A stretch of DNA of 50,008 nucleotides. Source: a phage. The stretch lies in the sequence record PX418923.1; one strand, written 5' to 3'. The notes beneath the pieces are model-generated. The model was not told the DNA's origin, did no database searches, and saw nothing but the letters and a program-made list of their open reading frames with translations. A program made the position numbers and the translations under genes. Below, piece after piece: positions 656 to 44,834 of this stretch (positions within the stretch are counted from its first letter, which is position 1; every line of letters begins with the position of its first letter).

Positions 656-2363
656 TACTCTTGTCAAGATCGGGCACGAATGTGGCACTCGTGATGGCCT
701 ACAAGTCTTTGAACGTGAAGACGGAGGCGTAGATGGGTATTGCTATTCGTGCAAAACTTATGTACGCCACCCGTTCGGAGACGAGCGAAATGTAAAAGAC
801 ATTCCTGTTAAGCAACGCATCAAGAAAACTAGGGAAGAAATCCAAGCAGAGATCAAAGAGATTGCTGACTATGGTGTTGTTGACCTAGTTGATCGTAGGC
901 TTCGTAAAGATGTACTAGAGCTTTACGGTATTAAAATTGGTGTTAGCGAAGAAGATGGTAAGACACCTAAGTTCCATTACTACCCATACTACAAGAATGG
1001 TGAACTAAGAGCCTACAAGGTACGCTTCGTAGAGAACAAGCGAATGTGGACTATTGGCGACCAGACAGATGTTGATTTGTTCGGCTGGGAAGTAGCTAAG
1101 AAGTCTGGAGCTAGGCGTCTGATCATTACTGAAGGTGAGCTTGATGCTGCTGCCCTTCATAAAATTTTGGAAATGTACACGCCAGAGCAATACAAGGACA
1201 ACACCCCAGCAGTGTGTTCTTTGCCTCATGGTGCTTCAGCCGCTGGTAAAGATATTGCCAGGCTGATGCCTGAGATTAGAAAATATTTTAAGGAAGTTAG
1301 TCTAGCTTTTGACAATGATGATGCTGGTCAGCGTGCTGTAGAAGATGTGTGTAAGATTTTCCCAGACGCTACAGTAATCAATCTCCCAGGTAAAGATGCT
1401 AACGAATGTCTCATGTCAGGCAAGGGGAAGGCAGCTCACAAGGCTTGCACCTTCAATCACCAAAAGGTTAAGAATACCAGACTAGTCTTTGGTGAAGACT
1501 TGCATGAAGAGGCTCGTAAGCCTGCCGCTTATGGTGAACTTACTTGGCCGTGGGAACACATCAATAAGAAGACTAGAGGCATTAGGTTCGGGGAAACTAT
1601 TTACATCGGCGCTGGTGTAAAGATGGGTAAGTCTGAGCTACTCAATATGTTGGGGGCTCACTTCGTAAAAGAGCATGGCGTTAAAGTATTCATGGCTAAG
1701 CCAGAAGAAGCTAACGCTAAGACATACAAACTCATGTGTGGCAAGATTGCCAAGAAGGTGTTCCATGACCCTGAGAGAGAGTTTGACTTTGACGCTTATG
1801 ATAGGGCTGGAGAAGTCCTTAAAGACAAGCTCGCAATGGTTAACCTCTACCAGCACCTTGGTTGGGAAACGCTCAAAGCAGACATTTATGCTGCTGCGGC
1901 GTGGGGTGCTAAGGTTGTATTCATTGACCCTATCACCAACCTTACGAACGGTATGGCAGCAGCAGACGCTAACGTCAAGTTGCAAGAGATCGCTCAAGAG
2001 ATTTCGGCTATGGCTCTTGATCTTAACATTGTCGTATTCCTCTTCGCTCACCTTAAAGCGCCTGAAGGTAACCTCAGTCTTGATCAACGCCAGAAAAAAT
2101 ATAAAGATGGCAAGTTCTATGGATTGGGCAACTGTCCTCATGAGCTTGGGGGTGACGTTGTTAGTTCTCAGTTTGCTGGTAGCCGTGCTATGATGCGTTC
2201 TTGTAACTTGATGCTTGGCTTGGAAGGTAACAAAGACCCAGAGCTTCCTGAGCATGTGCGTAATCTACGTAACCTACGTTTGTTGGAAGATCGTGAGTTT
2301 GGTGGTACAGGTAACTACCCGCTCTTTTGGAACAAAGAAACAACTATGTTTGAGGAAGTATAA
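648..2363 (+). CDS. T7 gp4-like bifunctional DNA primase/helicase
   Basis: N-terminal Cys-rich zinc-binding segment, TOPRIM-like EGELDAAA, Walker A GAGVKMGKSE, 571 aa; start overlaps upstream stop. Confidence 0.9.
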   Translation: MSNTLVKIGHECGTRDGLQVFEREDGGVDGYCYSCKTYVRHPFGDERNVKDIPVKQRIKKTREEIQAEIKEIADYGVVDLVDRRLRKDVLELYGIKIGVSEEDGKTPKFHYYPYYKNGELRAYKVRFVENKRMWTIGDQTDVDLFGWEVAKKSGARRLIITEGELDAAALHKILEMYTPEQYKDNTPAVCSLPHGASAAGKDIARLMPEIRKYFKEVSLAFDNDDAGQRAVEDVCKIFPDATVINLPGKDANECLMSGKGKAAHKACTFNHQKVKNTRLVFGEDLHEEARKPAAYGELTWPWEHINKKTRGIRFGETIYIGAGVKMGKSELLNMLGAHFVKEHGVKVFMAKPEEANAKTYKLMCGKIAKKVFHDPEREFDFDAYDRAGEVLKDKLAMVNLYQHLGWETLKADIYAAAAWGAKVVFIDPITNLTNGMAAADANVKLQEIAQEISAMALDLNIVVFLFAHLKAPEGNLSLDQRQKKYKDGKFYGLGNCPHELGGDVVSSQFAGSRAMMRSCNLMLGLEGNKDPELPEHVRNLRNLRLLEDREFGGTGNYPLFWNKETTMFEEV

Positions 2364-2863
2364 TGGTTGATGTGAAAGCTCGTAACCTGATTATGGACAG
2401 GTTCTTTAAGAACAACTACAATGAATTGGTAAAGCGTGTGTCGTTCCGTGCTGGTACTCCTGAGAACGCAGAAGACATTGTTCAAGAAGCTTTTGCCAGA
2501 GCATTGAAGTATTGGAACTCTTATGATCCAGAACGAAAAGAGTTGGGAGCTTGGTTCAATTCCATTCTCAATAATGCCCTTCGAGACTTTAAAAGGGACG
2601 AACGCCGGTATGGCATGTGTGAAGAATTCGATGAGGAAGAAATAGATGGAGTGGCACTCTCTCAAACTGAAAGTGGTCTACGAAAGTTTATTGACAGAGC
2701 TATCACCGAGCGTCCATCAAACGTTGCTGATATTCTCCATCTGTATTTTATCTTGGGCTATAAGCCTAGGGAAATTGTAGAAGTAACTGATGCTGACGCA
2801 GCTTTTGTTAGCCGCATGGTGTACAACTTTAGAGAAGAGTTGAAGGGACAAGTCAATGAGTAA
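2363..2863 (+). CDS. Sigma-70 family (ECF-like) sigma factor-like protein
   Basis: Region-2-like DIVQEAFARALKYW and C-terminal HTH-like region-4 segment (LGYKPREIVEVTDADAAFVSRMVYNFR); 166 aa. Confidence 0.5.
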   Translation: MVDVKARNLIMDRFFKNNYNELVKRVSFRAGTPENAEDIVQEAFARALKYWNSYDPERKELGAWFNSILNNALRDFKRDERRYGMCEEFDEEEIDGVALSQTESGLRKFIDRAITERPSNVADILHLYFILGYKPREIVEVTDADAAFVSRMVYNFREELKGQVNE

Positions 2864-10537: not shown

Positions 10538-10786
10538 ATGAAGAAGATGACACTGTTGAGCGCTAATTGGTGTGGACCATGTGGCGTAATCAAAGAATGT
10601 ATTGGTCGTAACGAGTATCAAGTAGAGGTTATCGACATTGACAAAAACCCTGCGGCTGCAAGAGAGTTCGGTATCAGAGGTATACCTACTCTAGTAGTGT
10701 TCACTGATGAAAAACCTGAGCTTGTAACAGGCGTACATAACATCCTAGTTAAGATGAAAGAGGTAAGTAATGCCCAGACTGCTTGA
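10538..10786 (+). CDS. Thioredoxin
   Basis: WCGPC active site; AAGAGG RBS 6 nt before ATG 10538. Confidence 0.8.
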   Translation: MKKMTLLSANWCGPCGVIKECIGRNEYQVEVIDIDKNPAAAREFGIRGIPTLVVFTDEKPELVTGVHNILVKMKEVSNAQTA

Positions 10787-11085
10787 GCCTAAGTATAGTT
10801 ATACCTTTGACTATCCTGAAGCCATTCAGTTTGCTAAGGTACAGTCATCTATCTTCTGGACTGATGACGAGATTAACGTAGAAAAAGATATTCAAGACAT
10901 TCGTGTAAACATGACAGAGGCGGAGGCGCATGGAGTCATTACAACACTTCGTCTCTTTACTTTGTACGAACTGGTTGCTGGTCGTGACTATTGGCTTGGT
11001 CGTGTCCTCAAAACTTTCCCTCGTCCTGATATTGAGAGGATGGCAGCTACTTTTGGGTTCTTTGAACTTAATGTTCACGCTCCGT
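10770..11085 (+). CDS. nrdB: Ribonucleotide reductase small subunit NrdB, exon 1
   Basis: N-terminal R2 homology through the iron-ligand E..H region (FFELNVHAP); unspliced frame stops at 11093. Confidence 0.7.
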
Positions 11086-11900
11086 CAAAATAGGGCGGCC
11101 TTTTCAAGAGATTGAAATTGAATAACTAACCTAAAAACGGGGAAGGGTTACTGACCTAATCCCGTGCTAACTCGCTATGAGATGTGTAACGACTATGAAA
11201 ATTAAAGACAAAAAAGAACTAATTAAGCTCATTTCCTTCATCACCATGGGTGATGGGTCTGTCTATAGGAACCGTGGTGCAGGCAACTGTCTGTTCTCCT
11301 TTTCCCAAACTGAAGACCACAAAGACTTCGTAGATTATGTGGGTTCCATCATCTCCAATATCACGTCTTACAAGGTTGTGGTAGATGAGAGAGAGGCACC
11401 AAGGAAATCTCTGCTTAAGTTGTGCACTCCTGTACATCCATACTTCAACAAACTGCGTGACCGGATTTATGTAGACTCCTACAAATCCATTGATCCACAT
11501 GCGTTGAAGATGTTAGACTTTGAAGCGTTAGCTATTTTGTATATGTGCGACGGTTGTTTGGGTAAGAGTATGAATTCGAACGGCTCTGTTGCTCGAACAG
11601 TGACACTTAACTTGTGCAGACTCTCCTACGGAGACCAGCTTCTACTGAAGAAGGCTCTTAAAGAAAAGTTAGACCTGGAATGGAACGTCGTTAAAACTGG
11701 TGGTAAATACCTGACTTTGCGTTTGCGGATGAAAGATTTCGACAAATTCATGCATGGTATCGAGCCATATATGCAAGAAAGCTTCCGATATAAACTTGAA
11801 ATTCGTACGGTTAGCCCCGAGAAATCGGGTGGTGAGATAGTCTGATCTATGTGGCAACACATAGGAGCCTGGCAGAAATGTCCAGGACATGAACGATATG
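11086..11900 (+). mobile_element. Group I intron in nrdB carrying a LAGLIDADG homing endonuclease ORF
   Basis: 5' exon ends in U (11085), intron ends in G (11900); the splice restores frame (codon T+TC=Phe) giving a 322-aa NrdB; intron contains P3-P7-like AAACGGGGAA...AAUCCCGUGCUAA and 3' GAGAUAGUCUG plus GNRA hairpin. Confidence 0.6.
11177..11845 (+). CDS. LAGLIDADG homing endonuclease (intron-encoded)
   Basis: Two LAGLIDADG-type motifs (LISFITMGDGSV and LAILYMCDGCLG). Confidence 0.8.
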   Translation: MRCVTTMKIKDKKELIKLISFITMGDGSVYRNRGAGNCLFSFSQTEDHKDFVDYVGSIISNITSYKVVVDEREAPRKSLLKLCTPVHPYFNKLRDRIYVDSYKSIDPHALKMLDFEALAILYMCDGCLGKSMNSNGSVARTVTLNLCRLSYGDQLLLKKALKEKLDLEWNVVKTGGKYLTLRLRMKDFDKFMHGIEPYMQESFRYKLEIRTVSPEKSGGEIV

Positions 11901-12553
11901 TCTACAATAAGATTAATGAAGCGCTTATGCTCAATACGGACGAGTTTTATCTTGCTTATGTTAACGATCCCATTCTAAAAGAACGTATGGAGTTTGTTGA
12001 CAGTTTGGTTGAGAAAGATGACCCACTGTACAGTCTTGGCGCTTTCTCTATGGTAGAGGGTGCTGTTCTGTACTCAAGCTTTGCTTTCCTTAAGCACTTC
12101 CAAGCTAAAGGTAAGAACAAACTGATGAACGTAGTGAGGGGTATTAACTTCTCTGTACGTGATGAGAACCTGCACTGTGAAGGTGGGGCTTGGTTGTTTA
12201 ATACTTTGAAGCAAGAGATTAAAGCTGAGGGTGGATACATCAACCCAAACCTTGAGTATGACTTGGCTAACTGTGCCAGAACTATTGCAGAGCATGAGTT
12301 CCGTATTGTTGACATGATCTTTGAGAAGGGTGAAATGGAAGGCATCACTGCTGAACAAATGAAAACCTTTGTCAAGTCTCGCGTTAATATTTGTCTTGCT
12401 CAGCTTGGTATTGATCCGGTGTTTGATGTAAGTAACAACATCATTGCTGAATGGTTCTATGACGGAATTAACGGAGTTATGTTCCATGACTTCTTCTCTG
12501 GCATTGGTAATAGTTACAACCGCAGTTGGGATGAGAAAGGATTTAGTTGGTGA
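11901..12553 (+). CDS. nrdB: Ribonucleotide reductase small subunit NrdB, exon 2
   Basis: Continues R2 homology (YNKINEA..., second iron-ligand motif RDENLHCEG). Confidence 0.7.
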
Positions 12554-14241
12554 GTACAATTTACGAGAAACTTTCCCAAGAGAGGAAAGAACTTCAAGCA
12601 CAAGGTCTTGTACCTGAATGGATGACTACTGGTGGATGGCAACTCTTTAAAGAAAAATATTTGTGGGAGGCGAGAGGACTTAAAGACACATACGAGCGTA
12701 TCGCTAAAACTGCTGCACAACATACTGACGACCCTGACAAGTGGGCCGCTAAGTTTTTTGATGTTCTTTGGCGCGGCTGGCTTGCTGCCTCTACTCCTGT
12801 TCTTAGTAACATGGGTACAATCAAAGGTATGCCAGTAAGCTGCTCTGGTCAATATATTGAGGACAGCATTGATGGATTCTATTCAGCCTACCACGAAACG
12901 GCTATGCTTACAAAGAATGGCTTCGGCACGTCGGGCTATCTCGGCGATATCAGACCTCGTGGAAGCATCATCAGTACCGGAGGAAAAGCTTCAGGTACTC
13001 TGCCAATCTTTAAGCATTTTGTCCAAGACATGCGAGATGTTGCACAAGGAACTTCTCGGAGAGGAGCATGGGCAGGGTATCTGCCTATTGACCACGGAGA
13101 CTTCTACGAAATCGTAGACTATCTAAAGAACTTCCCAGACGACCTTAACATTGGCTGGAACCTAAGCCAAGCGTTTATCGACCGTCTAGAAGCAGGTGAT
13201 GTAGACGCTGTACAACGCTTCCAGAGAGCAATGTATGTTAAGGCTATCACTGGTAAGGGCTATTTCTTTAAGCCTGACACAGTGAACGCTATGAACCCAC
13301 AGGTGTATAAAGACAGGGGGCTTGAAGTTAAAGCCTCTAACCTTTGCACTGAGATTACATTGTTTAGTGACGAAGACCATACCTTCACTTGTGTGCTCTC
13401 GTCTATGAATCTGGAGAAGTATGATGAATGGAAAAACACAGATGCAGTGTTCGTGTCTACAGTGTTTCTTGACTGCGTTGCACAAGAGTTTATCCGACTC
13501 GCCAAGGGACAAAAGGGTTTTGAAAAGAGTGTTAGATTCACTGAGGCAAGCCGGGCTCTTGGGCTTGGAGCCCTTGGTTTCCACACCTATCTGCAAGCTA
13601 AGATGATCCCACTTGAGTCTTTCGAGGCTCATATGACCAACCTAGAAATCTTCCAACATCTACATGAGGAGGCCACTCGTGCTACAAAGTGGATGGCGAA
13701 AGCTTGGGGCGAGCCTGAGTGGTGTAAAGGTTATGGTGTTAGGAACACTCATCTACTTTCTATTGCCCCTAACACATCTTCTGCTCTTATCTGTGGGGGC
13801 GTCTCCCAAGGTATTGAACCGGTGGTTGCAAATCTGTACAATCAACCAACCTCCGCAGGGGAAATTTACAGAGTCAATCCTGTCTTTCTTAACCTGGCAA
13901 AGAAACGTGTTGGGTGGACTGACGAACTCGTTAAAGAACTGACTGAAACTGAAGGTAGCGTACAACATCTTGATTGGCTTAGTCCGAAAGAGAAAGCTGT
14001 ATTCAAGACGGCTTATGAGGTGGATCAAGCAGCTCTGGTTAGATTAGCAGCAGCTCGACAGCCTTACATCTGTCAAGCACAGTCACTTAATTTGTTCTTT
14101 GACGCTGATGAAAGTGAAACCTACATTGCTCAAATCCATAAAGAAGCTCTACTCAATCCACAAATCAAGTCCCTCTACTACATGCGAACCAAAGCAGGAG
14201 TGCAGGCAAGTAAGGGGGAGTGTGAAGCGTGCAGTGGATAA
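12547..14241 (+). CDS. nrdA: Ribonucleotide reductase large subunit NrdA (class I, no ATP cone)
   Basis: ASTPVLSNMGT, NLCTEITLF active-site region, C-terminal CEACSG; TTG/GTG start overlapping nrdB stop. Confidence 0.85.
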   Translation: MVSTIYEKLSQERKELQAQGLVPEWMTTGGWQLFKEKYLWEARGLKDTYERIAKTAAQHTDDPDKWAAKFFDVLWRGWLAASTPVLSNMGTIKGMPVSCSGQYIEDSIDGFYSAYHETAMLTKNGFGTSGYLGDIRPRGSIISTGGKASGTLPIFKHFVQDMRDVAQGTSRRGAWAGYLPIDHGDFYEIVDYLKNFPDDLNIGWNLSQAFIDRLEAGDVDAVQRFQRAMYVKAITGKGYFFKPDTVNAMNPQVYKDRGLEVKASNLCTEITLFSDEDHTFTCVLSSMNLEKYDEWKNTDAVFVSTVFLDCVAQEFIRLAKGQKGFEKSVRFTEASRALGLGALGFHTYLQAKMIPLESFEAHMTNLEIFQHLHEEATRATKWMAKAWGEPEWCKGYGVRNTHLLSIAPNTSSALICGGVSQGIEPVVANLYNQPTSAGEIYRVNPVFLNLAKKRVGWTDELVKELTETEGSVQHLDWLSPKEKAVFKTAYEVDQAALVRLAAARQPYICQAQSLNLFFDADESETYIAQIHKEALLNPQIKSLYYMRTKAGVQASKGECEACSG

Positions 14242-14282
14242 TGCAATGCTCAATGACGTGAATTTCTGCTAGAAAAATTTTT
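14242..14282 (+). promoter_or_regulatory. Conserved repeated element, copy 1 (AATGCAATG...GAATTTCTGCTAGAAAAATTTTT)
   Basis: One of four copies of a 21-bp core with a shared upstream AATGCRATGGGCAATGG-like half; lies just after nrdA stop. Confidence 0.4.
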
Positions 14283-14294
14283 GGCAAAAGAAAA

Positions 14295-14309
14295 GGGGCC
14301 TTTGGCCCC
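14295..14309 (-). terminator. Rho-independent terminator at the convergence of plus and minus gene blocks
   Basis: GGGGCC-TTT-GGCCCC hairpin; on the minus strand it is followed by TTTTCTTTTGCC and sits 6 nt after the last minus-strand stop. Confidence 0.5.
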
Positions 14310-14315
14310 TGCTCT

Positions 14316-14594
14316 TTATCTCTCTAACTTACCTTCCAGTCTAGCTACGTTCTTACTCAGACTATCTACGCTATCGGACAGTTTGCCTAACACTCTAATA
14401 GTTTCAGCTTGTGTCTTCTCAGCGTTCTCTAGCTTAGTTTCAAGCACTTGTGTTTGAACAACAAGCCCCTCACTTTTGGCGGCGCCATGTTTAATGTCTT
14501 GAACATCGGCGTACAATATCCCTCCGCCAAACACTAAACTCCCTACAGTAACTACGGTTTGAACACCAGTACCAATCTTATCTAATAGTGCCAT
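14316..14594 (-). CDS. Small membrane protein, lysis-associated (holin/spanin-like)
   Basis: N-terminal hydrophobic segment then coiled coil; last gene of late operon next to holin-like and lysozyme genes. Confidence 0.4.
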   Translation of the reverse strand: MALLDKIGTGVQTVVTVGSLVFGGGILYADVQDIKHGAAKSEGLVVQTQVLETKLENAEKTQAETIRVLGKLSDSVDSLSKNVARLEGKLER

Positions 14595-29025: not shown

Positions 29026-29147
29026 AGTATACCTCTAAGTAATTAATGTTAATTAATATATAATAATATTATTAATTATAATATTACTAATATATATATA
29101 TAAATATATTATACACATAGTATATACTTTTTTTAGAAGATAATCTC
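29026..29147. promoter_or_regulatory. AT-rich intergenic tract with TA repeats upstream of scaffold/capsid genes
   Basis: About 120 bp of almost pure A/T including (TA)n and TAGTATATACT, inside the late operon. Confidence 0.35.
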
Positions 29148-33335: not shown

Positions 33336-35099
33336 TTAAGATACAGTAACAATCGAGCCTGCTTTGTTCGTGACCCGGATTTTCACATTGATTGGCGATG
33401 CAGTCCCGTTATTGAATGTAACGGTGAAAGCCGCACCAGACGGTCCGTCCCCGTAGGTCGCAGATAGACCAGCAGAAATGATCGTCCCTGTGACGTCCCG
33501 CGCCTTTGAGCCAGTAGGGTTGCCATACGCAACTACATTCTGGTGCCCGCCAAACCCGTCGTCATATGCAACGTCAGCATTCAACACAAACGATCCGCTC
33601 ACGTTGAAAGTTTTTGTCAGGCTGCCAGATGCTGGAATCGTTCCGCTAAAGTCAACGACGTTGACATATTCTGGCGACCCAACTTGACCGCCATTCATGA
33701 GAACATCCACGTACCTACTAGCGAAAATAACAGCACCAGAATCAATTGCAGGTAAAGCAGTTTCCCCAAATGCCTGACCCCTCTCCCAATTTCCATTGAT
33801 CATTACATCGGTGTGCCCTACATATCCAAGCGGACTTCCAGCGAAGTTTCCACCGCCACCAGTAGGGCCGTACAGCCCGCAGAATTCTCTATTGCAAGAA
33901 TTGAAAACTGCCGTGTTACGTTTCGTGGAAGATGTCAACCCATTGGCCGTATTCATAATCCCCCAAATCGATTCGAACACACAATTGCTGAACGTTACAT
34001 CTACGTTACCGCCAGTCCCACTAACCGTCTTTGTCAGGAAGATGGCTTGCGACGAGAGATCAAAGAGGAGACATTCATTCAGGAATAGATGATTGTACGT
34101 GCAATCCTGAAGATGCATAGCGGTCCCACACTTATAGAAGTACACACGATTCAACGAAGTTGGACCAACGTAGTTATAGGTCGGCAACCCTGTTGCAACC
34201 CCAATAGTTTTCACAGCGTCTTGATAGCTAACGAAAGCAACATCTTCAAGAACGTTGCCAGTTATGTATCTGTTACTGCTCGCATCAGGATTGCCTTTCC
34301 TGATTAGGATTGCAGGATTTGGATTCACAGGAGTACCGGCTGGATAGAACGAAGTATCTACGAATGCCACCCCACGGATATCAAAGTTTTCGTTCCTAAA
34401 GTCGTTGAACGAAATATCCAGGGCACTGTTTCCATTGGTGTAGATCAGGCTTCCAACTCTACTAACCACATAACCAGCAGCTACAGCACCTGTCTTAAAA
34501 GTACCTCGAATTTTCACAGACGAAAAAAGTGTATCAGCTCCATCAAGGACGGCAGTGGAATTAATCCTAACTACGCCATCAGGAAGTTGAAGCTCTTTAT
34601 TTGCTGACAAGCAATACTCAAGTGCTGCTTTAAACGAAGCGGAAGAGTCCACAGATTCACTTACAACACCACCGAAGTCTTCCAACCTTACTTCGTCGGA
34701 GACACGTACCCAACAACCACTGACCCCAGGAGAGGTTTCTCCAGCTCCAGATAGGTACGCATTCAGGGTGCTATAAAGCCCATCCCAGGGGACAGTGGGG
34801 CTAATGATAGTCCCGCCATTGTGGTTAGAACGTGCCACTGTGGGGTCAAATTTAAAAAACCCACCACCTTGTTTGGTTCCAATCGTATGTTCTTTAGCAT
34901 AGAACAGTTGGTTATAATTTTGTCTAGCAGAACTTAGCTCTGACAAATTATTAATTACAACAGCACCCCTACCAATTAACCCAGCCCCATTTTGAGGAGA
35001 GCTAGTGTCGCTTAGGTTGACGCTAGTGAGGATATCTTCTAGATTAATAGTAAAGCTATTATCTGGTTTTTGTAGAGTGTCTACTCTCAACGTACTCAT
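33336..35099 (-). CDS. Tailspike/tail fiber protein (possible beta-helix depolymerase)
   Basis: 587 aa, Gly/Asn/Thr/Ser-rich repetitive composition; adjacent to tail fiber-like gene. Confidence 0.5.
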   Translation of the reverse strand: MSTLRVDTLQKPDNSFTINLEDILTSVNLSDTSSPQNGAGLIGRGAVVINNLSELSSARQNYNQLFYAKEHTIGTKQGGGFFKFDPTVARSNHNGGTIISPTVPWDGLYSTLNAYLSGAGETSPGVSGCWVRVSDEVRLEDFGGVVSESVDSSASFKAALEYCLSANKELQLPDGVVRINSTAVLDGADTLFSSVKIRGTFKTGAVAAGYVVSRVGSLIYTNGNSALDISFNDFRNENFDIRGVAFVDTSFYPAGTPVNPNPAILIRKGNPDASSNRYITGNVLEDVAFVSYQDAVKTIGVATGLPTYNYVGPTSLNRVYFYKCGTAMHLQDCTYNHLFLNECLLFDLSSQAIFLTKTVSGTGGNVDVTFSNCVFESIWGIMNTANGLTSSTKRNTAVFNSCNREFCGLYGPTGGGGNFAGSPLGYVGHTDVMINGNWERGQAFGETALPAIDSGAVIFASRYVDVLMNGGQVGSPEYVNVVDFSGTIPASGSLTKTFNVSGSFVLNADVAYDDGFGGHQNVVAYGNPTGSKARDVTGTIISAGLSATYGDGPSGAAFTVTFNNGTASPINVKIRVTNKAGSIVTVS

Positions 35100-35689
35100 G
35101 GTTGTACTTCTCCGTTAGCAATAGTCCAGAACGAATTGTCGCCAATAGTAACTACTTGACCCGCATCAATAGTCATCGTAGGTCCAAAAGACCAAGCGTT
35201 AACATTGTCTGGTATGTCAATACTATTTGTTACATGCTGTCCGTGCCAACTAATAACTGAGAAAGCACTTCCCATTGGTGGGTTGGTTCCATTAAGTTGT
35301 TCTTGTAAAGAAGCATCACCGGCTGCTCTAGCAGCAGCTTCTTCATCAAGCTCTTGTTTACGTACTGCTTCAGTAGGAGCTGTAGCCTTACGTAGGTTAG
35401 TCATACGCTGTTGCCCAGCGTTAAAGGTTCCCTCTAATGTATCCCCCTTAATGTTGTAATAGCGTACATCACCATCAGCAACAGTAAGAAGACTATCAGG
35501 GTTGGTTACATCTGTCTTAACATTAAGCAAAGCATAAGAGTTCATGTCCAAATCTTGGAGCATGGTGTTGTTACCACCCTTCAAGTGAAGAACATCCTCA
35601 TTAATACTTTGCTCAATAACATCGAAGTTATAATTAATCTTCGTGACATTGTAACCAGACGTAATGTTTTGTAACGTTATGTCGGTCAT
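35096..35689 (-). CDS. Tail fiber/adaptor protein (first gene of late operon)
   Basis: ATG at 35689 with AAGAG RBS after a structured 5' leader. Confidence 0.4.
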   Translation of the reverse strand: MTDITLQNITSGYNVTKINYNFDVIEQSINEDVLHLKGGNNTMLQDLDMNSYALLNVKTDVTNPDSLLTVADGDVRYYNIKGDTLEGTFNAGQQRMTNLRKATAPTEAVRKQELDEEAAARAAGDASLQEQLNGTNPPMGSAFSVISWHGQHVTNSIDIPDNVNAWSFGPTMTIDAGQVVTIGDNSFWTIANGEVQP

Positions 35690-35870
35690 AAGAGTCTCTT
35701 ATTATTCTTAACGCTCACTTGCGTGAGCAACAATACCTTTAGCATTAAGTGCCGAAGGCGTATAGTCCTCTCACATGTTAGTATGTTCTCCTCTTCATGA
35801 GAAGAACACCTACATAGCAACTCCCTGTCACTACATGAGGAGAACCTTAAGGCCCACTTTTTAGTGGGAG

Positions 35871-35891
35871 GAATTTCTGCTAGAAAATTTT
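35871..35891 (+). promoter_or_regulatory. Conserved repeated element, copy 4 (GAATTTCTGCTAGAAAATTTT), coordinates approximate
   Basis: Same core as copies at 14260, 39131 and 43232; preceded by CCCACT-TTTT-AGTGGG hairpin and followed by GGGTCAATGCAACTAATG. Confidence 0.4.
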
Positions 35892-36293
35892 AAGGGTCAA
35901 TGCAACTAATGAACCCCCTCCACTAACCCCCTGGCCTACCCCTATAGGCAAAATCTATGAGGAGGTGGGGTGTAATATACTCCCACTATCACCACCACAT
36001 TTTGCCTCACATGTAAATAGGCCTCTAAGCCTAGTGGCACTAGGGGTACAGGCTTATACGCTGGCAAGCCAGCACATGTGCTTATGTGTATGTGCGACTA
36101 CCGTCGCGTATAGGCTTATAAAACGTGCTAACAGCACACTCATACCTGGCATGCATCATGCTACGCATACAGGTACGCTTCTATGCACGTGAACAAGCTG
36201 TATAAATAACCAGTTGACTGTCACCGACACCCCATGGTTGAATGGCCCCACTGTTTGATATCGCCCAGCAACATGGCCAGTATCAAACAGGGG

Positions 36294-36322
36294 TTGACAA
36301 GCTAAGTCGAAAGGCATAGCAT
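36294..36322 (+). promoter_or_regulatory. Sigma70-like promoter P1 (TTGACA-17-TAGCAT), coordinates approximate
   Basis: Perfect -35 TTGACA, 17-bp spacer, -10 TAGCAT; preceded by inverted repeat CTGTTTGATA/TATCAAACAG. Confidence 0.45.
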
Positions 36323-36476
36323 GTGAATCGTAAGTCGGAGCCGACAATAATCGTTGGTTCTGATGTAACGGAGCCAACAATCTTGTTCTCCAGTCTACGG
36401 ACACAATGGGGAATGACACGATAGGTTCTAGGGCATGAGCCAGTTAGTGTAAGGCCGGCAGGCATCTAGTTGGGGA

Positions 36477-36505
36477 TTGACAAGAGTTAGCGAAGTATGT
36501 AACAT
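36477..36505 (+). promoter_or_regulatory. Sigma70-like promoter P2 (TTGACA-17-TAACAT), coordinates approximate
   Basis: Perfect -35 TTGACA, 17-bp spacer, -10 TAACAT; flanks GGGGATTGACAAG...ATGTAAGTC conserved with P1. Confidence 0.45.
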
Positions 36506-36726
36506 GTAAGTCAGTCGGGAAGTAAGGGACTAGGACAAACCTAGCATTGCTAACCTAACTCGCCAGCTACGGGGCTGGACTAGCCGGGATACCGACCGGG
36601 AGACGAAGGCAGTGTAACGTTAGCCTCAATAGCGTTACTGACCGGCTGAAAGCAGCCACAATGTAACAAACGTTCTTTAACAATATGTCTAGTGTGCTGT
36701 AGTGTATCCACATAGGAGGCACTACC

Positions 36727-36948
36727 ATGCGAATCAATCCGAACGACTATGCTATCAATCCGGCAATCATCCTGGCTGGGGTAGCTTGCAGCAATGGTAT
36801 GCGTATGCTAGCTAACGAAATCTTGAAGGCTAGTCCGGCAGCTAAAAGAGAGATTGAACACTTTCAACAAGTGGACAGTTCTCTAAGAGGCATGCTTAGT
36901 ATCCATGTAGCTGCTACAATAGTCTATCGCATGAATGTCGCGTATTGA
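36727..36948 (+). CDS. Hypothetical early protein (73 aa)
   Basis: Strong AGGAGG RBS; flanked by about 35-bp repeats. Confidence 0.5.
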   Translation: MRINPNDYAINPAIILAGVACSNGMRMLANEILKASPAAKREIEHFQQVDSSLRGMLSIHVAATIVYRMNVAY

Positions 36949-37043
36949 AAAATACGCTACACTACAGCACATTAGACATATGTTCTTTAACAATGTGGAT
37001 CAGTAGGCATTAGTAGACCCTCATCTTATACGGGAGAACTACT

Positions 37044-37193
37044 ATGCGTAATGAACGTCAAGCCTACCTTGCCCTTAAGAGCCAGGAAACTGTAGCTCAA
37101 AAAGTGGAACGTATCAGCAAGATGGACAAGCCTTTTGCTTTCAGACTGGCAGCCATCATTGCATGTGACACTAACAAAGGTAAGGTTTGGTGA
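37044..37193 (+). CDS. Small hypothetical protein (49 aa)
   Basis: GGGAG RBS then ATG; below ORF-track size cutoff. Confidence 0.3.
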   Translation: MRNERQAYLALKSQETVAQKVERISKMDKPFAFRLAAIIACDTNKGKVW

Positions 37194-37774
37194 GGCACTC
37201 GAAAGAGTGTCTACTAATGTCTACTGGTCTACATAGCCTAGCCACTCAGGCGTCGATAACGGGAAATGCGATGCTGGCCGGCTTGAGATTCCCTAAGAAA
37301 ATTTTAGGGCTTGACAAAGCGACAGAAAGTGGTAATATGGCTCCCAACAAAGGCAAACGGGCCTGGAGGCTTACAAAGCTCAAACAGTACGTCCCGACAG
37401 GGGGCGGCCTAAGTAAGTAAAGCGCTAGCTGGCTTCGGCCTCAAGGTGAGCGCATGAAAGCGGACGGTACAAAGCGTGGAAGGTTTGTAGAACACGCCAG
37501 TAATGCCTACTATACAGGCATCCGTATCGGGCTCTAGGATAGTTAGAGACGGGCTGTAGCTTGCAGCCATAGCAGGGGAGGATTAGTAGCGTCTGACAAA
37601 CGTGAACCGCCAGAACTGTAAGCCGGAGCAGCTAGCAGGGTGCTACCCTCCGAAGTCCCGCGAAGGGCAAAGTCTTTTTAGACTTAGGTGAACGTTCTGT
37701 ATTACCAATGCAGCGCACTGATAAAGCGTATAGTGCAGAGCAGAACGTTCAACCTAAACCTAGGAGGAACTAAT

Positions 37775-38047
37775 ATGGCCTTCCAAGCTAAGAATCACAA
37801 GCGTCAGCCTGACACTAGAATGAGCAACAAAGCCAAAATTGCACGGCGCGAAGATAAGATAGCTGCACTTGCTGCTGAGAAAACACCAGAGGCACGGAAA
37901 GTGCGGAAGGAAATGAACGATGTTGTATATCGTGGGACCCGTACCAACCTTAATGATTTTTGGAACCCAAAAGGAAAACGTCTCGCTAAAGGTAGTGGCG
38001 TAAAAGCTACCAAAATTAATCGAGCACTCAAAGCAAAAACCAACTGA
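37775..38047 (+). CDS. Small highly basic protein (possible nucleic-acid-binding)
   Basis: TAGGAGG RBS then ATG; Lys/Arg-rich 90 aa. Confidence 0.5.
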   Translation: MAFQAKNHKRQPDTRMSNKAKIARREDKIAALAAEKTPEARKVRKEMNDVVYRGTRTNLNDFWNPKGKRLAKGSGVKATKINRALKAKTN

Positions 38048-38128
38048 GGAAACACAATGTTGGCGCTCGATGAGTACCCGCATTCTACGTTTCAACCGTA
38101 AAACCCTTGAGTTTGTAGGAGTAGTGAA

Positions 38129-38674
38129 ATGAAAGCTATCAAATACATCACCGCTAAAGATGCTGCTGAGCTGGAAAAGATTCAGGCCACCGCTATTAAG
38201 TCGGTACAGAAAGCACGTGTGTTGGTACAAATCGCGGCAGTAGCAACCATTATGCACGCTCACAAGCATGGTGACTGGACGTACGCTCAGAAGCTCGTCG
38301 ATGGTTTGGGTAACACTGTTAATGGTACTGCCCTTGTCGAATGGTTCAAGTTGTATGGTGGACTGAACACTGATGACAACGGATTCATCGGCTGGTCCGG
38401 AAAGGATTATATTGAGAAACACTTTGAGGAAGCTAAAGCCACTATGTGGTGGGAACTCAAAGTTAAATCTCCTTTCAAGGGGTTTGATCTCGAGGCAGCC
38501 TTGCAAAAAGTGATCAAGGATCATAACGCCATGAAAGAGAAAGTGGCTGGCCTTACGCAGGGAGATCAAGAGAAAGTTAACTTCAAAGTTAACGATGCTA
38601 CTATCCAAGCCGTGTTGAAGTTGTGTAACTTCGAAGCAATCATTGAAGAGCCTGTTGTCGAGGAAGCTGCTTAA
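38129..38674 (+). CDS. Hypothetical protein
   Basis: AGGAG RBS; 181 aa. Confidence 0.55.
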   Translation: MKAIKYITAKDAAELEKIQATAIKSVQKARVLVQIAAVATIMHAHKHGDWTYAQKLVDGLGNTVNGTALVEWFKLYGGLNTDDNGFIGWSGKDYIEKHFEEAKATMWWELKVKSPFKGFDLEAALQKVIKDHNAMKEKVAGLTQGDQEKVNFKVNDATIQAVLKLCNFEAIIEEPVVEEAA

Positions 38675-38817
38675 TATATATATATATATATTACTAAGGG
38701 TCGGAGTTGGTTGGTTTACTTCGTACCCCAACTCCTCCCTCTTAGTATATATACTAATAGTTATACGTTAGTATACTACTTAAAATAAAGACGTTTCTCC
38801 TAAATCGGAGCGTAATC

Positions 38818-39009
38818 ATGAGCGTACAGGCAGTGACTATTGGGGACGATAGCGTCCAATACCGTGTCATCGTAGGGCAAGGGACACTAACCGTCGCTGT
38901 CAAGCACATAGAGATGTTGACCACTCTTGTGTGGCGTAATGGTAAGCACGAGTTCGCGTCTCAACCACACGAAGTGGTAACTCACATTGAAGGTAGGGAC
39001 TGGCGGTGA
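38818..39009 (+). CDS. Hypothetical protein
   Basis: GGAG RBS; 63 aa. Confidence 0.45.
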   Translation: MSVQAVTIGDDSVQYRVIVGQGTLTVAVKHIEMLTTLVWRNGKHEFASQPHEVVTHIEGRDWR

Positions 39010-39090
39010 ACAGTGATGTTTTCTTTATGCGTATGCTGGTAGTAGTGTACGCTATTTTTATTGTCTGCAAAATGGCAGACCTAGCCAGCT

Positions 39091-39142
39091 AAGCTCGAAT
39101 AATGCAATGGGCAATGGCTGGCTTTTATATTAGAAAAATTTT
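39091..39142 (+). promoter_or_regulatory. Conserved repeated element, copy 2 (AAGCTCGAATAATGCAATGGGCAATGG...TTAGAAAAATTTT)
   Basis: About 80 percent identical over roughly 60 bp to copy 3 at 43202; immediately precedes RBS and ATG 39156. Confidence 0.4.
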
Positions 39143-39155
39143 CGAGGGTTTGGCT

Positions 39156-39464
39156 ATGCGTAAACCATATTTTCATGTTGGTGAAGAAGTCATTCTACAA
39201 AGTGTTGATCGACCAGACTTGAATGGTGAATACACTGTAAGACAAGTTTTAGTTGGCAGAGAAACTTACATTTGTCGAGCTACTGGGGAGAAGGTTCGCA
39301 CATACCCAGAAGGTTTTTATTACATCTTAGAAGAAGTGATCCTACTCACCCATGACGGATTTGAAATGAATTGGAATGAAAGTGCCTTAAGGAAGAAGCA
39401 TAAACCTTCCGATGACAGCTTTGAGCAAATTATGAACAAATTGAAGGAGAAAGAGCATGTTTAA
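39156..39464 (+). CDS. Hypothetical protein
   Basis: GAGGG RBS 7 nt before ATG 39156. Confidence 0.5.
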   Translation: MRKPYFHVGEEVILQSVDRPDLNGEYTVRQVLVGRETYICRATGEKVRTYPEGFYYILEEVILLTHDGFEMNWNESALRKKHKPSDDSFEQIMNKLKEKEHV

Positions 39465-39852
39465 ACTCCCTAAAGCAAAAGCTGGTAATGAGTGGACGGA
39501 ATGGAAAGGTGGTGCATGCCCCGTCCCCAAAGGAACTAAAGTAGATGTTATCTATCGTGATGGCTATAGAACACAGTGGAAAGTAGGCAATATTGATTTT
39601 ATGTATGATGACCTCGCCGATGGCGTATGGGGTCATCTAGGTGATGAGAGTGATATTGTAGCCTATCGCCTTTCATGGGTACGCCATCGTGGCGGTAAAC
39701 ATCCTGGTGAACCAGGTGACAAGTTTGTTGTGCGCTTTCGTGATGGCAGGGTAGTGGGAGTGATCATCATGGATAATGACAGAGACAACAATATTACATG
39801 GCGACACTTCAACAACCGATACGATATTATGGCATACAAGCCCGTCCTGTAA
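39457..39852 (+). CDS. Hypothetical protein
   Basis: ORF with start overlapping upstream stop. Confidence 0.5.
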   Translation: MFKLPKAKAGNEWTEWKGGACPVPKGTKVDVIYRDGYRTQWKVGNIDFMYDDLADGVWGHLGDESDIVAYRLSWVRHRGGKHPGEPGDKFVVRFRDGRVVGVIIMDNDRDNNITWRHFNNRYDIMAYKPVL

Positions 39853-39922
39853 CTACCCTATAGGGTGGCCTAGGGTATAGGTCAAACGTGCGTTATACGT
39901 CAAATCTGGAGGTTATAGAGGC

Positions 39923-40207
39923 ATGATTAGGCTCAACATGGACTTTCTTCTGCTCACTAGAGCAGCACAACAAGTTAAAAACTTTTGTAAACACACTGGA
40001 CTTGACGAAGGCGTCATTATGGAGACGCTCAGAATGCGTTGCGAAAGTCAATGGATTAAGCGGGAAGAAGATGGGAAGACTGTCACCTATGATGGTGAAG
40101 GTTGGATAGTTGATGACGATCCACACTTCATTGACATCGACAAGGCTTTAATCTGGGACAATACGCCAGAGGGCCACAACTATTGGTCTACTATCAGTCT
40201 TTATTAA
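39923..40207 (+). CDS. Hypothetical protein
   Basis: GGAGG RBS. Confidence 0.5.
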   Translation: MIRLNMDFLLLTRAAQQVKNFCKHTGLDEGVIMETLRMRCESQWIKREEDGKTVTYDGEGWIVDDDPHFIDIDKALIWDNTPEGHNYWSTISLY

Positions 40208-40215
40208 ATGAATGA

Positions 40216-40298
40216 GCGGGAGTAGCCCCGTCAGTCTTCTAAACTGATAAGGGTAATTGGAGCTGAAAATGTGAGTTCGAATCTCACCTCCCGCGCCA
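40216..40298 (+). tRNA. tRNA-like element with canonical T-arm, acceptor stem and encoded CCA but no recognisable D-arm
   Basis: 5' GCGGGAG pairs with 3' CTCCCGC; T-arm GTGAG-TTCGAAT-CTCAC; discriminator G and CCA at 40296-40298; internal hairpin TCAGT-CTTCTAA-ACTGA could be an anticodon arm (TCT). Confidence 0.4.
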
Positions 40299-40319
40299 CC
40301 CTACAAAATGGAGAACAGA

Positions 40320-40547
40320 ATGAGCGACTTCAAGAACTGGATAGAGGATGTAGGTATCGGCAAGTGCGGTAACGGATATTTTGTCCGAATTGATGGATGT
40401 GACATCTTTGAAAGTGTCAACCAGTACGGATGCAAGGCCCGCAGAAGCCTATCTATCGCAGAGTGTCTTGGTAGTAAGGAAGAAGCTAAAGCATCTGCCA
40501 TCGAATGGCTGGAGAAACAGCTAGCAAAGGTAAAGGCCACCGACTAA
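40320..40547 (+). CDS. Hypothetical protein
   Basis: Second ATG preceded by GGAGAA; the same AAATGGAGAACA..ATG cassette recurs at 40557. Confidence 0.45.
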   Translation: MSDFKNWIEDVGIGKCGNGYFVRIDGCDIFESVNQYGCKARRSLSIAECLGSKEEAKASAIEWLEKQLAKVKATD

Positions 40548-40568
40548 TCGGTATAAATGGAGAACAAC

Positions 40569-40769
40569 ATGAAATTTCTTGTATGCTTTTTCGTCTTTAT
40601 CTTTAGCATGCTAATGCTAACTGCCTTCTTAGTAGAAGGTAGGACAGAAGCTATGGAGGCTGAGGGTGAACACGTAGGTGGCAATATCTTTCGATACAAC
40701 GATAAGGAAATGGGTATTGTCTGCTACAAAGTTCGTGGAGAAGCCCTTAGTTGTGTACGAAATAGGTGA
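40569..40769 (+). CDS. Small membrane protein
   Basis: N-terminal hydrophobic segment FLVCFFVFIFSMLMLTAFLV. Confidence 0.45.
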   Translation: MKFLVCFFVFIFSMLMLTAFLVEGRTEAMEAEGEHVGGNIFRYNDKEMGIVCYKVRGEALSCVRNR

Positions 40770-40848
40770 GTCAACATGATTGCACTGATGTGCGTCTTCG
40801 TCATTGGCCCATACATCGCGTAGAAGCGCAAAGATTGGAAGGTGTAGT

Positions 40849-41121
40849 ATGCTTATCAAAGAACATTCCATACATGGCGGGATACAAAAAATATACCGCT
40901 TCGATAACAATCGTGGCGCCAGCGTAACCAAGCACGATGGTTCTTATGGAGGAGATATAGATTTGTGGGAACTCGGGGTTATCAGGTTCTATGATGATAC
41001 CCAAGATTGGCATCTAGACTACACCACCCCAATTACGGAGGATGTACTAGGGTATCTGACCTGGGAAGATGTAGAAGAGCTATTGGCTAGGATCTCTAAG
41101 TTAGAGAAAGTAGAGGTGTAG
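40849..41121 (+). CDS. Hypothetical protein
   Basis: GGAAGG RBS before ATG 40849. Confidence 0.45.
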   Translation: MLIKEHSIHGGIQKIYRFDNNRGASVTKHDGSYGGDIDLWELGVIRFYDDTQDWHLDYTTPITEDVLGYLTWEDVEELLARISKLEKVEV

Positions 41122-41122
41122 T

Positions 41123-41251
41123 ATGCTCATCCTCACTGGTCTTATCCGCCATGGTTGGAAGATGGACAGGCAAGAGATTAGTCTTATTGCTTGGTTTGGT
41201 TTCTTCGAACTGGCAATAGAGGTGGCAATCATCAATCTTATTCTGGATTAA
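41123..41251 (+). CDS. Small hydrophobic hypothetical protein (42 aa)
   Basis: Same AGGTGTAGTATGCT initiation sequence as the gene at 40849. Confidence 0.25.
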   Translation: MLILTGLIRHGWKMDRQEISLIAWFGFFELAIEVAIINLILD

Positions 41252-41255
41252 TTAG

Positions 41256-41423
41256 ATGAAACAATATCAAGTGAAGTTTGTTTGGTTGCTTCAACCAGAC
41301 TATAGCACTCGTGTCTACGCAAAGGACAAGAGTCATGCTTATAAAATTGCCCTTCTTAATGCTGAGGCTGATGGTTGGCGCTATGAAGGCCCGTCTGAAA
41401 CTAAAATTGAGGAACTCAAATAA
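41256..41423 (+). CDS. Small hypothetical protein (55 aa)
   Basis: ATG to TAA overlapping next start. Confidence 0.3.
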   Translation: MKQYQVKFVWLLQPDYSTRVYAKDKSHAYKIALLNAEADGWRYEGPSETKIEELK

Positions 41424-41653
41424 TGCGTGGGACCAAAGCTAAACTTTTTCGTAAGATTGCATACAACGATACCTTTGCCACTCAAACAACCTACACTAGT
41501 AAGTTGCACAAGCCCAAGGAAATTTGGACTGGTAAGCTGAATGATGATGGCACTAAGAAGATGACTGTCATTCAAATGTCCACCATCAAGCTTGATGAGA
41601 ACTGTGCTCGTAAAGTTTATAAAGAACTGAAGACTATTTGGAAAGGGAAGTAG
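41423..41653 (+). CDS. Hypothetical protein
   Basis: ORF with overlapping start/stop. Confidence 0.45.
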   Translation: MRGTKAKLFRKIAYNDTFATQTTYTSKLHKPKEIWTGKLNDDGTKKMTVIQMSTIKLDENCARKVYKELKTIWKGK

Positions 41654-41654
41654 C

Positions 41655-42590: not shown

Positions 42591-43203
42591 AGTACATATC
42601 ATCAACAGTAGTGACGAATACGTGCACATGTTTGGTAAGATGGGTTGGGAAGTTGTTGGCATCAAAGACTTCTTCAATGCTGATCTCATCCAATTTACTG
42701 GCGGTTCCGACGTAACTCCCATGCTGTATGGGGAAAGCCTGCACCCCAAGACTTATTGCAGCCAACGTCGTGATTTGGAAGAAGCAGGCTACTTTGCATT
42801 TGCTCAACGTTGCTCCATTCCTATGGCTGGCCTCTGTCGAGGCGGTCAGTTCCTTAACGTTATGAATGGTGGTAAGATGTTCCAACATGTTGATGGGCAT
42901 GCCACTGGTCGAAACCACATTCTGTTTGATCGGTTCACTAACAAGTCTTGTAATGTAACCTCTACTCACCATCAAATGATGATCCCACATTATAGTGGTG
43001 AAGTCATTGCAATCGCACATGAGGCTAAAGTCAAGGAAAGTTATGGCACTACCTTCCCCAGCGGTGGTGATGATGTAGAGGTAGTATATTATGACAAAAC
43101 CAAATCGTTGTGCTTCCAACCACACCCCGAGTTTTATCACGCTGACAGTACTCGTGACTATTACTTTGAACTTCTCGAACGTTATTTGGGGCTGTCCGCA
43201 TAA
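42583..43203 (+). CDS. Class-I glutamine amidotransferase-like / peptidase C26 (gamma-glutamyl hydrolase-like) protein
   Basis: Catalytic Cys motif G-L-C-R-G-G-Q and C-terminal HPE; GTG start with GGAGGAAG RBS. Confidence 0.6.
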   Translation: MPKVHIINSSDEYVHMFGKMGWEVVGIKDFFNADLIQFTGGSDVTPMLYGESLHPKTYCSQRRDLEEAGYFAFAQRCSIPMAGLCRGGQFLNVMNGGKMFQHVDGHATGRNHILFDRFTNKSCNVTSTHHQMMIPHYSGEVIAIAHEAKVKESYGTTFPSGGDDVEVVYYDKTKSLCFQPHPEFYHADSTRDYYFELLERYLGLSA

Positions 43204-43254
43204 GCTCGAATAATGCGATGGGCAATGGTTTGAATTTCTGCTAGAAAAATTTTT
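43202..43254 (+). promoter_or_regulatory. Conserved repeated element, copy 3 (AAGCTCGAATAATGCGATGGGCAATGG...GAATTTCTGCTAGAAAAATTTTT)
   Basis: Lies between the C26-like gene stop and the GGAGG RBS of the next gene. Confidence 0.4.
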
Positions 43255-43266
43255 GGAGGTTTATTT

Positions 43267-43458: not shown

Positions 43459-43493
43459 CTAAGCAACCTCGTCGAGGTTCGGAGGATAAAATT

Positions 43494-44825: not shown

Positions 44826-44834
44826 GTAAATAAA

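Follow-up and report, generated by a model that had tools for sequence, protein, structure and literature searches.

Genome Setting and the Repeated Intergenic Cassette

Sequence record PX418923.1 (50,008 nucleotides; the window, i.e., the whole stretch of DNA that was analyzed) is the complete genome of a PA11-like Pseudomonas aeruginosa podophage (Zobellviridae, Paundecimvirus), with 94–96% identity to the P. aeruginosa podophages PA11, TC6, and O4. The subject of this study is a cassette of about 45 bases that is present in five copies in this genome, at positions 14238 (c1), 35849 (c2), 37263 (c5), 39099 (c3), and 43210 (c4). All copies are intergenic, lie on the plus strand and keep a strict orientation. 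Small early genes, the replication genes, nrdA, and an amidoligase cluster are encoded on the plus strand, from about 35965 through the window end and start to 14241; the minus strand, from 35689 down to 14316, codes for structural and lysis proteins. PA11-like phages and their sigma-bearing relatives encode no RNA polymerase of their own. The copies and the features around them are given in Table 1.

Table 1. Cassette copies, promoters, terminators, and the candidate reader gene in the window (nt, nucleotides; aa, amino acids; ORF, open reading frame; ECF, extracytoplasmic function).
Feature	Position	Strand	Description
c1 (orphan)	14238–14284	+	Blocks A, M, and B right after the nrdA stop codon (14239–14241); no gene downstream here; runs into the bidirectional terminator
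c2 (variant without block A)	35849–35918	+	Hairpin 35853–35868; M+B GGAATTTCTGCTAGAAAATTTT 35870–35891; TCAATGCAACTAATGA 35897–35912; C-run
c3	39099–39145	+	Block A AATGCAATGGGCAATGG 39101–39117; block M CTTTTAT; block B TTAGAAAAATTTT 39130–39142; GAGGG 39144–39148; ATG 39156 (GAGGG-N7-ATG)
c4	43210–43256	+	Block A 43212–43228; M+B GAATTTCTGCTAGAAAAATTTTT 43232–43254; GGAGG 43255–43259; ATG 43267 of a 63-aa ORF (GGAGG-N7-ATG)
c5	37263–37309	+	Block A AATGCGATG 37265–37273; block B TAAGAAAATTTT 37294–37305; sigma70 promoter P3 begins 5 nt later
Phage ECF-type sigma gene	2363–2863	+	166 aa; between primase/helicase and DNA polymerase; candidate reader of the motif
Bidirectional intrinsic terminator	14295–14317		GGGGCC TTT GGCCCC (14295–14309) and T-tract; between the convergent plus- and minus-strand gene blocks
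Predicted intrinsic terminator	39029–39062	+	10-pair stem (39029–39052), then TATTTTTATT; closes the early gene block just upstream of c3
Sigma70 promoter P1	36294–36322	+	Near-consensus, same kind as P3
Sigma70 promoter P2	36477–36505	+	Near-consensus, same kind as P3
Sigma70 promoter P3	37311–37338	+	Near-consensus TTGACA-16-TAATAT with TG; in tandem with c5

The 22-mer GAATTTCTGCTAGAAAAATTTT matches without mismatch at 14260 and 43232 and with two mismatches at 35871, and shuffled versions of the window contain no match; the copy at 39131 has kept only the 3′ half (TTAGAAAAATTTT). The shorter pattern AGAAAAWTTT is found exactly five times in the window, each time on the plus strand and within the motif (shuffles: mean 0.46, maximum 3), and AATGCRATG-N22-AGAAAAWTTT four times (14240, 37265, 39101, and 43212) against none in 100 shuffles. 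AATGCRATG thus stands invariantly 31 nt upstream of AGAAAA in four copies and is absent from the one at 35849. These four copies share three blocks in a fixed register: block A, AATGCRATG(G), present as a tandem heptamer (GCAATGG GCAATGG) in most copies of PA11-like phages; block M, a short ATTT-centered block 6–9 nt ahead of block B; and block B, CTAGAAAA(A)TTTT.

Regions 39090–39159 and 43201–43270, which contain c3 and c4, share some 60–70 bp at 80% identity, and each is followed by a ribosome-binding site (RBS), which starts 7 nt past TAGAAA, and an ATG. Copy c4 is a chimera with a 5′ half like that of c3 and a 3′ half like that of c1 and c2. Some 45 nt separate c3 from the predicted terminator stem upstream of it. 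In c2, a hairpin stands where block A would be, and a sequence resembling block A is located downstream instead. This copy marks the start of the divergent control region and is oriented away from the first late gene, at a distance of about 165 bp. The terminator that follows c1 folds with z = −2.7, and the PA11 annotation has a terminator on both strands at this site.

A preliminary description of this DNA, made from the letters alone, had reported four copies of a partly palindromic motif, three of them preceded by a common upstream sequence. It was right on the plus strand, the shared orientation, and the existence of the upstream block, but it missed the fifth copy (37263–37309), and the upstream block is lacking from one copy only. 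The palindromic part (TTTCT/AGAAA) is weak and is not kept in the copies at 37263 and 39099. The positional statements of the preliminary description (two copies directly upstream of an RBS and start codon sharing about 60 bp at roughly 80% identity, one at the start of the control region, one between nrdA and the convergent terminator) are all correct if the copies are numbered in the order 14260, 39131, 43232, and 35871, and only then.

Mosaic Junctions in Close Relatives

Phages TC6, PA11, O4, DMTU_1, and HHBS10_2 keep all copies of the cassette, with different adjoining genes, and the breakpoints of homology between these phages and the window coincide with c1, c3, and c4. In TC6 and HHBS10_2, GGAGG-N6-ATG behind c1 belongs to a 73-aa gene (TC6_023) that is absent in the window, the difference being a 229-bp indel flanked by 9-bp AATTTTTGG repeats. 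We propose that c1 has lost its gene. Phage DMTU_1 has an endonuclease gene between nrdA and c1. At c3, homology to PA11 and TC6 ends at 39149, right past the motif. The 63-aa ORF behind c4 is common only to O4, and in the other relatives the motif lies directly ahead of the amidotransferase gene; a search for related loci with the amidotransferase protein returned only PA11 and O4. Copy c2 is tandemly duplicated in HHBS10_2. In O4 (1–620), the HNH endonuclease gene gp01 is inserted in c2 and flanked by an inverted duplication of the core AATTTTTGCTAGAAAT, so that the endonuclease gene gains a core-motif copy of its own. Given these breakpoints, the indel, the duplications, and the insertion, all at copies of the cassette, we consider the cassette a recombination junction. 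The second heptamer of block A varies freely among PA11-like phages.

The Cassette in Distant Zobellviridae

Remote members of the Zobellviridae were recruited by tblastn with the sigma protein encoded at 2363–2863, and a motif profile built from the copies of PA11-like phages, GP100, and T2S2 was then run on sequences outside that set. Phage GP100, with a sigma that is 45% identical, has six plus-strand copies of the form ATAGCGGAATGC-N-GATTAAC-GCTAGAAAAT, and oyster phage T2S2 (sigma 38% identical) has TAATTATGAGATGG-N-TTTTTT-GTTAGAAAATATTTTGGAGG. When the sequences of these distant relatives are aligned on AGAAA without gaps, blocks A, M, and B hold their register within 1 nt. The profile finds further copies in Vibrio phage 1.253.O (sigma 30% identical) and in eight of 10 IMG/VR contigs that had been recovered only via their sigma gene. 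All 38 model matches at E ≤ 0.5, from seven complete genomes and 10 loci, lie on the strand of the early/middle genes. The consensus outside the PA11 group reads TTAWGGRAATGC(TAG)-N9-10-GATTTAAC-NN-CTAGAAAATAATTT, and block B and the RBS are separated by a variable 0 to about 20 nt in these lineages. Scans of IMG/VR with exact patterns gave mostly chance A/T-rich matches without block A, in addition to contigs already known via the sigma gene. In ICP2 and VpV262, which also belong to the Zobellviridae, neither a sigma homolog nor a full copy of the cassette was detected. The conservation in phages with sigma proteins only 30–45% identical rules out a remnant of a recent duplication, the possibility that the preliminary description had named as fatal to its proposal.

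Two of the GP100 copies have neighbors other than a protein-coding gene. Copy g1 abuts a tRNA gene, the 5′ end of which lies 8 nt past TAGAAA, and copy g0 (895) is followed by a sigma70 promoter, TTGACA-N17-TAAGAT, in the same arrangement as c5 and P3. In GP100 (2020–2106), the tRNA directly behind a motif copy has the anticodon TTA (‘tRNA-Stop’ according to ARAGORN) and is possibly an ochre suppressor tRNA in a Pseudomonas phage.

The deepest conservation is seen for the c2-type module, which consists of M+B, CAATGCA..TAATG, and a C-run, lies at a distance of about 165–190 bp from the first late gene, and is found at the same place in the window, T2S2, CW02, 1.253.O, and Klyazma. The sigma-less phage ICP2 has a possible module of this type (E ~3). 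In Klyazma, no full A+M+B copy was found; its c2-type module is directed into the terminal repeat of 711 bp, which was determined by experiment and lies about 60 bp away. This phage was discarded as a sigma-negative control, a very divergent sigma being present, and its own repeated sequence is an RBS/start-codon motif. The role of c2 may be partly different from that of the other copies.

In Klyazma and VpV262, the ends of which have been mapped, the terminal repeats are located in the divergent region near c2. Positions 1–127 of the window repeat exactly as 49882–50008, inside a coding region. Judged by this exact end repeat, the window holds a single whole genome of 49,881 bp that was assembled as a circle, and the likeliest origin of the repeat is a k = 127 assembly overlap, not a physical terminal repeat. 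A further element near the divergent region is a perfect 6-bp hairpin with a GCAA tetraloop (GCTCAC GCAA GTGAGC; 35712–35727, minus strand), conserved in O4; the first late gene follows about 25 nt downstream.

The Phage Sigma Factor and a Candidate Late Promoter

The ORF at 2363–2863 matches Pfam Sigma70_r2 (E = 3.8e-14) and TIGR02937 (sigma70-ECF; 58 bits against a cut-off of 42.9, residues 12–162), and its profile matches the structures of SigW, SigE, and RpoE across both domains. Judged by these profile matches, it is a complete ECF sigma factor with domains 2 and 4. The phiEco32 protein gp36 was not among the PDB matches of the sigma or of its profile. Across lineages, block B and the domain-2 segment of the sigma are well conserved, and block A and the domain-4 helix both vary. 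This parallel variation of block A and the domain-4 helix favors the sigma as reader of the cassette, but is suggestive only.

An A-tract with GTATATAC upstream of the scaffold gene is common to the window, GP100, T2S2, CW02, 1.253.O, and Klyazma. In the sigma-less ICP2, the annotation has a sigma70 promoter (TTGACT-N16-TAGAAT) at this site. We regard the region upstream of the scaffold gene as a candidate late promoter, rather sigma70-like. The late genes may be without the motif because they are served by another type of promoter. In the window, the 120 bp upstream of the scaffold gene (29026–29147, minus strand) are extremely A/T-rich, and the corresponding region of T2S2 contains 11-bp periodic repeats.

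Nature of the Signal

The variable distance to the RBS and the presence of a tRNA gene, sigma70 promoters, and a terminator beside the copies point to a signal at the level of transcription rather than translation, and a DNA-level transcription-start signal fits the cassette best. We think it probable that the cassette is a transcription-start signal of a phage-specific class, used in the early/middle unit, and not a host sigma70 promoter. The phage ECF sigma is the tentative reader of this signal, an assignment the chances of which we place just short of even. The explanation as a whole, a phage-specific promoter working by means of the phage sigma, has in our judgment an even chance of being correct. 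The preliminary description had left the choice between a promoter for a phage sigma-like factor and an operator. The anatomy fits a start signal best, the link to the sigma is circumstantial, and the upstream block may still be an operator. In favor of the sigma are its full-length ECF gene, the co-occurrence of cassette and sigma gene across distant phages, the absence of full copies from the two sigma-less relatives ICP2 and VpV262, the resemblance of the blocks to ECF promoter elements, and the different signal at the scaffold gene.

According to the mechanism that we propose, the phage ECF sigma would join the host core RNA polymerase. Its domain 4 would read the upstream block at about −39 to −33 (GCRATGG here, GGAATGC/GAAATGC in relatives) and its domain 2 would open the DNA at CTAGAA, at about −12 to −7, with the A/T-rich tail AAATTTTT serving as discriminator and start region. 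The ATTT block would lie within the 18–19-nt spacer and may help bending. Transcription would restart at c3 after the early terminator, and c3 is the probable main promoter of the middle operon. Copy c4 would boost the amidoligase and replication operon, the sigma gene included, resulting in positive feedback after read-through from P1–P3. Copy c5 would be a backup for P3, and c2 an older variant without block A beside the probable terminal-repeat region. The likeness among the copies would make them recombination points for gene swaps.

Bacterial ECF promoters have consensus sequences such as GAACTT-N16-17-TCTGA (RpoE/AlgU) and TGAAAC-N16-CGTA (SigW). Set against the −35 element of this kind (GGAAC/GAAAC type), block A reads GGAATGC, GAAATGC, or CAAATAC in relatives, GCAATGG/GCGATGG in the window, and GGGGTGC in 1.253.O, with the hallmark C missing. 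By analogy with the general consensus, GGAAT/GAAAT may be likened to an ECF −35 element and CTAGA/TCAGA to a short ECF −10 element.

Several observations weigh against this explanation. The upstream hexamer is 19 nt away from CTAGAA in PA11-like copies and 18 nt in GP100-like ones; this spacing is constant within 1 nt but exceeds the 16–17 nt of typical ECF promoters, and the −10-like block CTAGAA is not of the usual CGT type. If AAATTTTT is the discriminator and start region, transcripts would begin about 7 nt past TAGAAA, which in PA11-like phages is 0–3 nt ahead of the Shine-Dalgarno sequence; an mRNA starting almost at the Shine-Dalgarno sequence would be unusual. Nearly all copies are located upstream of the sigma gene, so the sigma must first come from read-through from P1–P3. 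The usual targets of a phage sigma are late genes, and the regions upstream of the late genes contain no cassette even at E ≤ 10. Phage CW02 has the sigma gene, and in it only a c2-type copy (41250; E ~0.03–0.07) and a weak copy (46601; E ~5–14) were found. The sigma-negative controls amount to two genomes, and co-occurrence of cassette and sigma is confounded with phylogeny. Copy c2 has no −35-like block, and since its type is kept in Klyazma and perhaps ICP2, a factor different from the sigma may read the M+B core. Finally, the literature searched on PA11-like phages and on promoters and sigma factors of Zobellviridae yielded no mapped 5′ ends of transcripts, no binding experiments, and no in vitro transcription for any of these phages.

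Alternative Explanations

The signal could instead be used by the host polymerase carrying either sigma70 or an RpoE/AlgU-type ECF sigma of the bacterium, together with an early phage activator bound to the upstream block in the manner of MotA/AsiA of phage T4; the phage sigma would then serve another class, e.g., the late genes. We consider this unlikely. It would suit the concentration of copies in the early/middle genes upstream of the sigma gene, the variation of block A between lineages with a constant block B, and the persistence of the c2-type copy where the sigma is very divergent or absent. Block B also contains weak −10-like hexamers with A2 and T6 (AAAAAT and GAAAAT, and AATAAT in relatives), and the TCAGA/CTAGA of GP100 resembles the general RpoE/AlgU element TCTGA. 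However, inspection revealed no −35-like hexamer 16–18 nt ahead of any −10-like hexamer of block B and no TGn extension. A scan of 35000–50008 with the sigma70 consensus hexamers lists P1–P3 and no site on c2, c3, c4, or c5, in agreement with the preliminary description, which had called the motif not sigma70-like. The full cassette is absent from the sigma-less phages ICP2 and VpV262, which infect similar hosts. No candidate activator was identified (homologs of MotA and AsiA were not searched for), and since the late promoters at the scaffold gene look sigma70-like in all lineages, the phage sigma would be left without another obvious target.

Other promoter types were tried and rejected. 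Sigma70 hexamer pairings made by eye on both strands did not hold across the copies; on the opposite strand of c2, the only pairing, TTGACC-N17-GAAATT, is weak. Resemblances to sigma54, sigma32, and AlgU sites were isolated ones in single copies and not common to the others. Likenesses seen by eye upstream of late genes received no support from the motif model. Block A was also tried as a −10 element like that of phage phiEco32. Its AATGCA/AATGCG fits AATGTA at five or four of the six positions, but it lies about 45 nt ahead of the RBS, nothing is conserved upstream of it, and the phage sigma is of the regular ECF type.

More unlikely still, in our view, is a variant of the proposed reading, drawn by analogy, in which the cassette would be a three-block promoter of an uncharacterized class for the phage ECF sigma, with an unusually long, bent spacer, and at the same time a portable module driving gene shuffling. 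The c2 type, as its oldest form, may then direct transcription into the terminal repeat and have a part in processing concatemers or forming genome ends, like phiOR of phage T7.

The mosaic junctions bear on a third possibility, namely that the copies are operators for a phage DNA-binding regulator without promoter activity of their own, or boundary sequences kept for gene exchange (recombination linkers or targets of mobile endonucleases). The tandem heptamer of block A in PA11-like phages and the two CTAG tetramers in many relatives would suit an operator, and the breakpoints exactly at the motif in c1, c3, and c4, the repeats flanking the c1 indel, the tandem duplication in HHBS10_2, and the endonuclease gene inside c2 of O4 with its inverted core duplication would suit a boundary sequence. 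A pure linker leaves unexplained the strict orientation, the three-block spacing across genera, the placement before RBSs, a tRNA gene, and promoters, and the absence from the late block. An operator would require a nearby promoter, and no sigma70-type one is present at c3 or c4; the free variation of the second heptamer among PA11-like phages also speaks against it. We therefore rate operators or linkers as improbable, below the explanations given so far.

Action at the RNA level, as an intercistronic processing site, an mRNA stabilizer, or an A/U-rich translational enhancer tied to the RBS, is highly improbable: block B does stand constantly 7 nt ahead of GGAGG/GAGGG in PA11-like phages, and some copies have short stems beside block A in which three substitutions in relatives keep G-U pairing, but these stems are too few and inconsistent, c3 and c4 fold no better than shuffles (z = 0.12 and 0.26), neither c2, c3, and c4 nor 26 copies of relatives (mean z = −0.85) have a consistent fold or hairpin position, Rfam reports no family at the motif (its only hit being a tRNA at 40216–40295), the distance to the RBS varies in other lineages, what follows some copies is a tRNA gene or a promoter and not an ORF, and c2 cannot act as RNA since no plus-strand transcript is expected there from upstream.

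Further Features of the Early Region and of the nrdA Neighborhood

Promoters P1–P3 each have a perfect TTGACA and are followed by long stretches without convincing ORFs (35965–36700 and 37340–37690) that could encode small RNAs of the early region or act as structured leaders. Two pairs of inverted repeats, 36683–36706/36958–36981 (24 nt, 96%) and 36993–37022/37205–37234 (30 nt, 87%), bracket the ORFs 36727–36948 and 37044–37193, respectively. As RNA, these would be long stems enclosing whole cistrons, reminiscent of the RNase III processing sites of T7 early mRNA.

The tRNA at 40216–40295 (plus strand) scores 44.3 bits with Rfam, and ARAGORN finds no tRNA in the window; phages O4 and DMTU_1 have an annotated tRNA-Arg(TCT) at this place. 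The gene seems to carry an insertion or an unusual arm. The gene for the small subunit of ribonucleotide reductase is split (10770–12553, plus strand) into an N-terminal part (10770–11093) and a C-terminal part (11849–12553), with a LAGLIDADG endonuclease ORF (11177–11845) in between, as in HHBS10_2. The split may be due to a homing-endonuclease insertion or to an intron; none of the latter was reported by Rfam.

Comparison With Known Systems and Significance

Phage phiEco32 encodes its own sigma, gp36, which together with the co-factor gp79 reads AATGTA at middle and late promoters (PMC12276001). Like the phage studied here, it is a podophage without an RNA polymerase of its own, with two opposed gene blocks and sigma70 early promoters. 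In phiEco32 a small phage sigma redirects the host core polymerase to a short phage motif, which is the role proposed here, and AATGTA resembles the AATGCA of block A. The differences are considerable. The gp36 protein has no detectable homology to the regular ECF sigma of the window, and its motif is a single −10 element centered at −11.5 that is also present at late genes. The window, in contrast, has three blocks over about 45 bp, none before late genes, with block A about 25 nt upstream of the likely −10 element, and no gp79-like partner was identified.

With bacterial ECF promoters the cassette shares a bipartite structure with strict spacing and a putative cognate sigma encoded nearby in the same transcription unit; its upstream element in relatives (GGAAT/GAAAT type) and its downstream element in GP100 (TCAGA/CTAGA type) bear some resemblance to theirs. 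It differs in its spacer of 18–19 nt, the third block (ATTT/ATTAAC) within this spacer, a T in the upstream element where AAC has C, and a downstream element that is continued by A/T-rich sequence, conserved over 13 nt. An anti-sigma gene is not apparent.

The middle promoters of phage T4 combine a MotA box with a sigma70 −10 element (TAnnnT) at a distance of 12 ± 1 bp. The likeness consists of a phage-specific upstream box in place of the −35 element and a possible tandem arrangement with early sigma70 promoters. However, the sequence 12 nt past block A is ATTTCT, ATTAAC, or ATTTAC, with no conserved final T and hence no TAnnnT, and the phage studied here encodes its own sigma. The promoter early stem-loops (PeSLs) of T4-type phages are mobile regulatory cassettes made up of a sigma70 early promoter with a defined stem-loop. 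As with PeSLs and moron boundaries, repeated intergenic cassettes are found here where variable genes begin or end, and they appear to promote the shuffling of modules, but the sigma70 promoter and the consistent stem-loop of true PeSLs are not present.

The cassette appears to be undescribed so far, although its kind, promoters for phage-encoded sigma factors, is known. Zobellviridae are podophages without their own RNA polymerase. For gene timing in those that carry an ECF sigma, the cassette is a concrete candidate target of that sigma, reducing the matter to five short DNA fragments and one protein of 166 aa. If the proposed reading is true, it would define the middle promoter class of the PA11-like therapeutic Pseudomonas phages and their marine relatives, provide a compact orthogonal sigma/promoter pair for Pseudomonas and Vibrio, and explain why gene content changes exactly at the cassette sites. 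If the sigma is not the reader, an as yet unknown activator has to be encoded by the phage, a result of no less interest.

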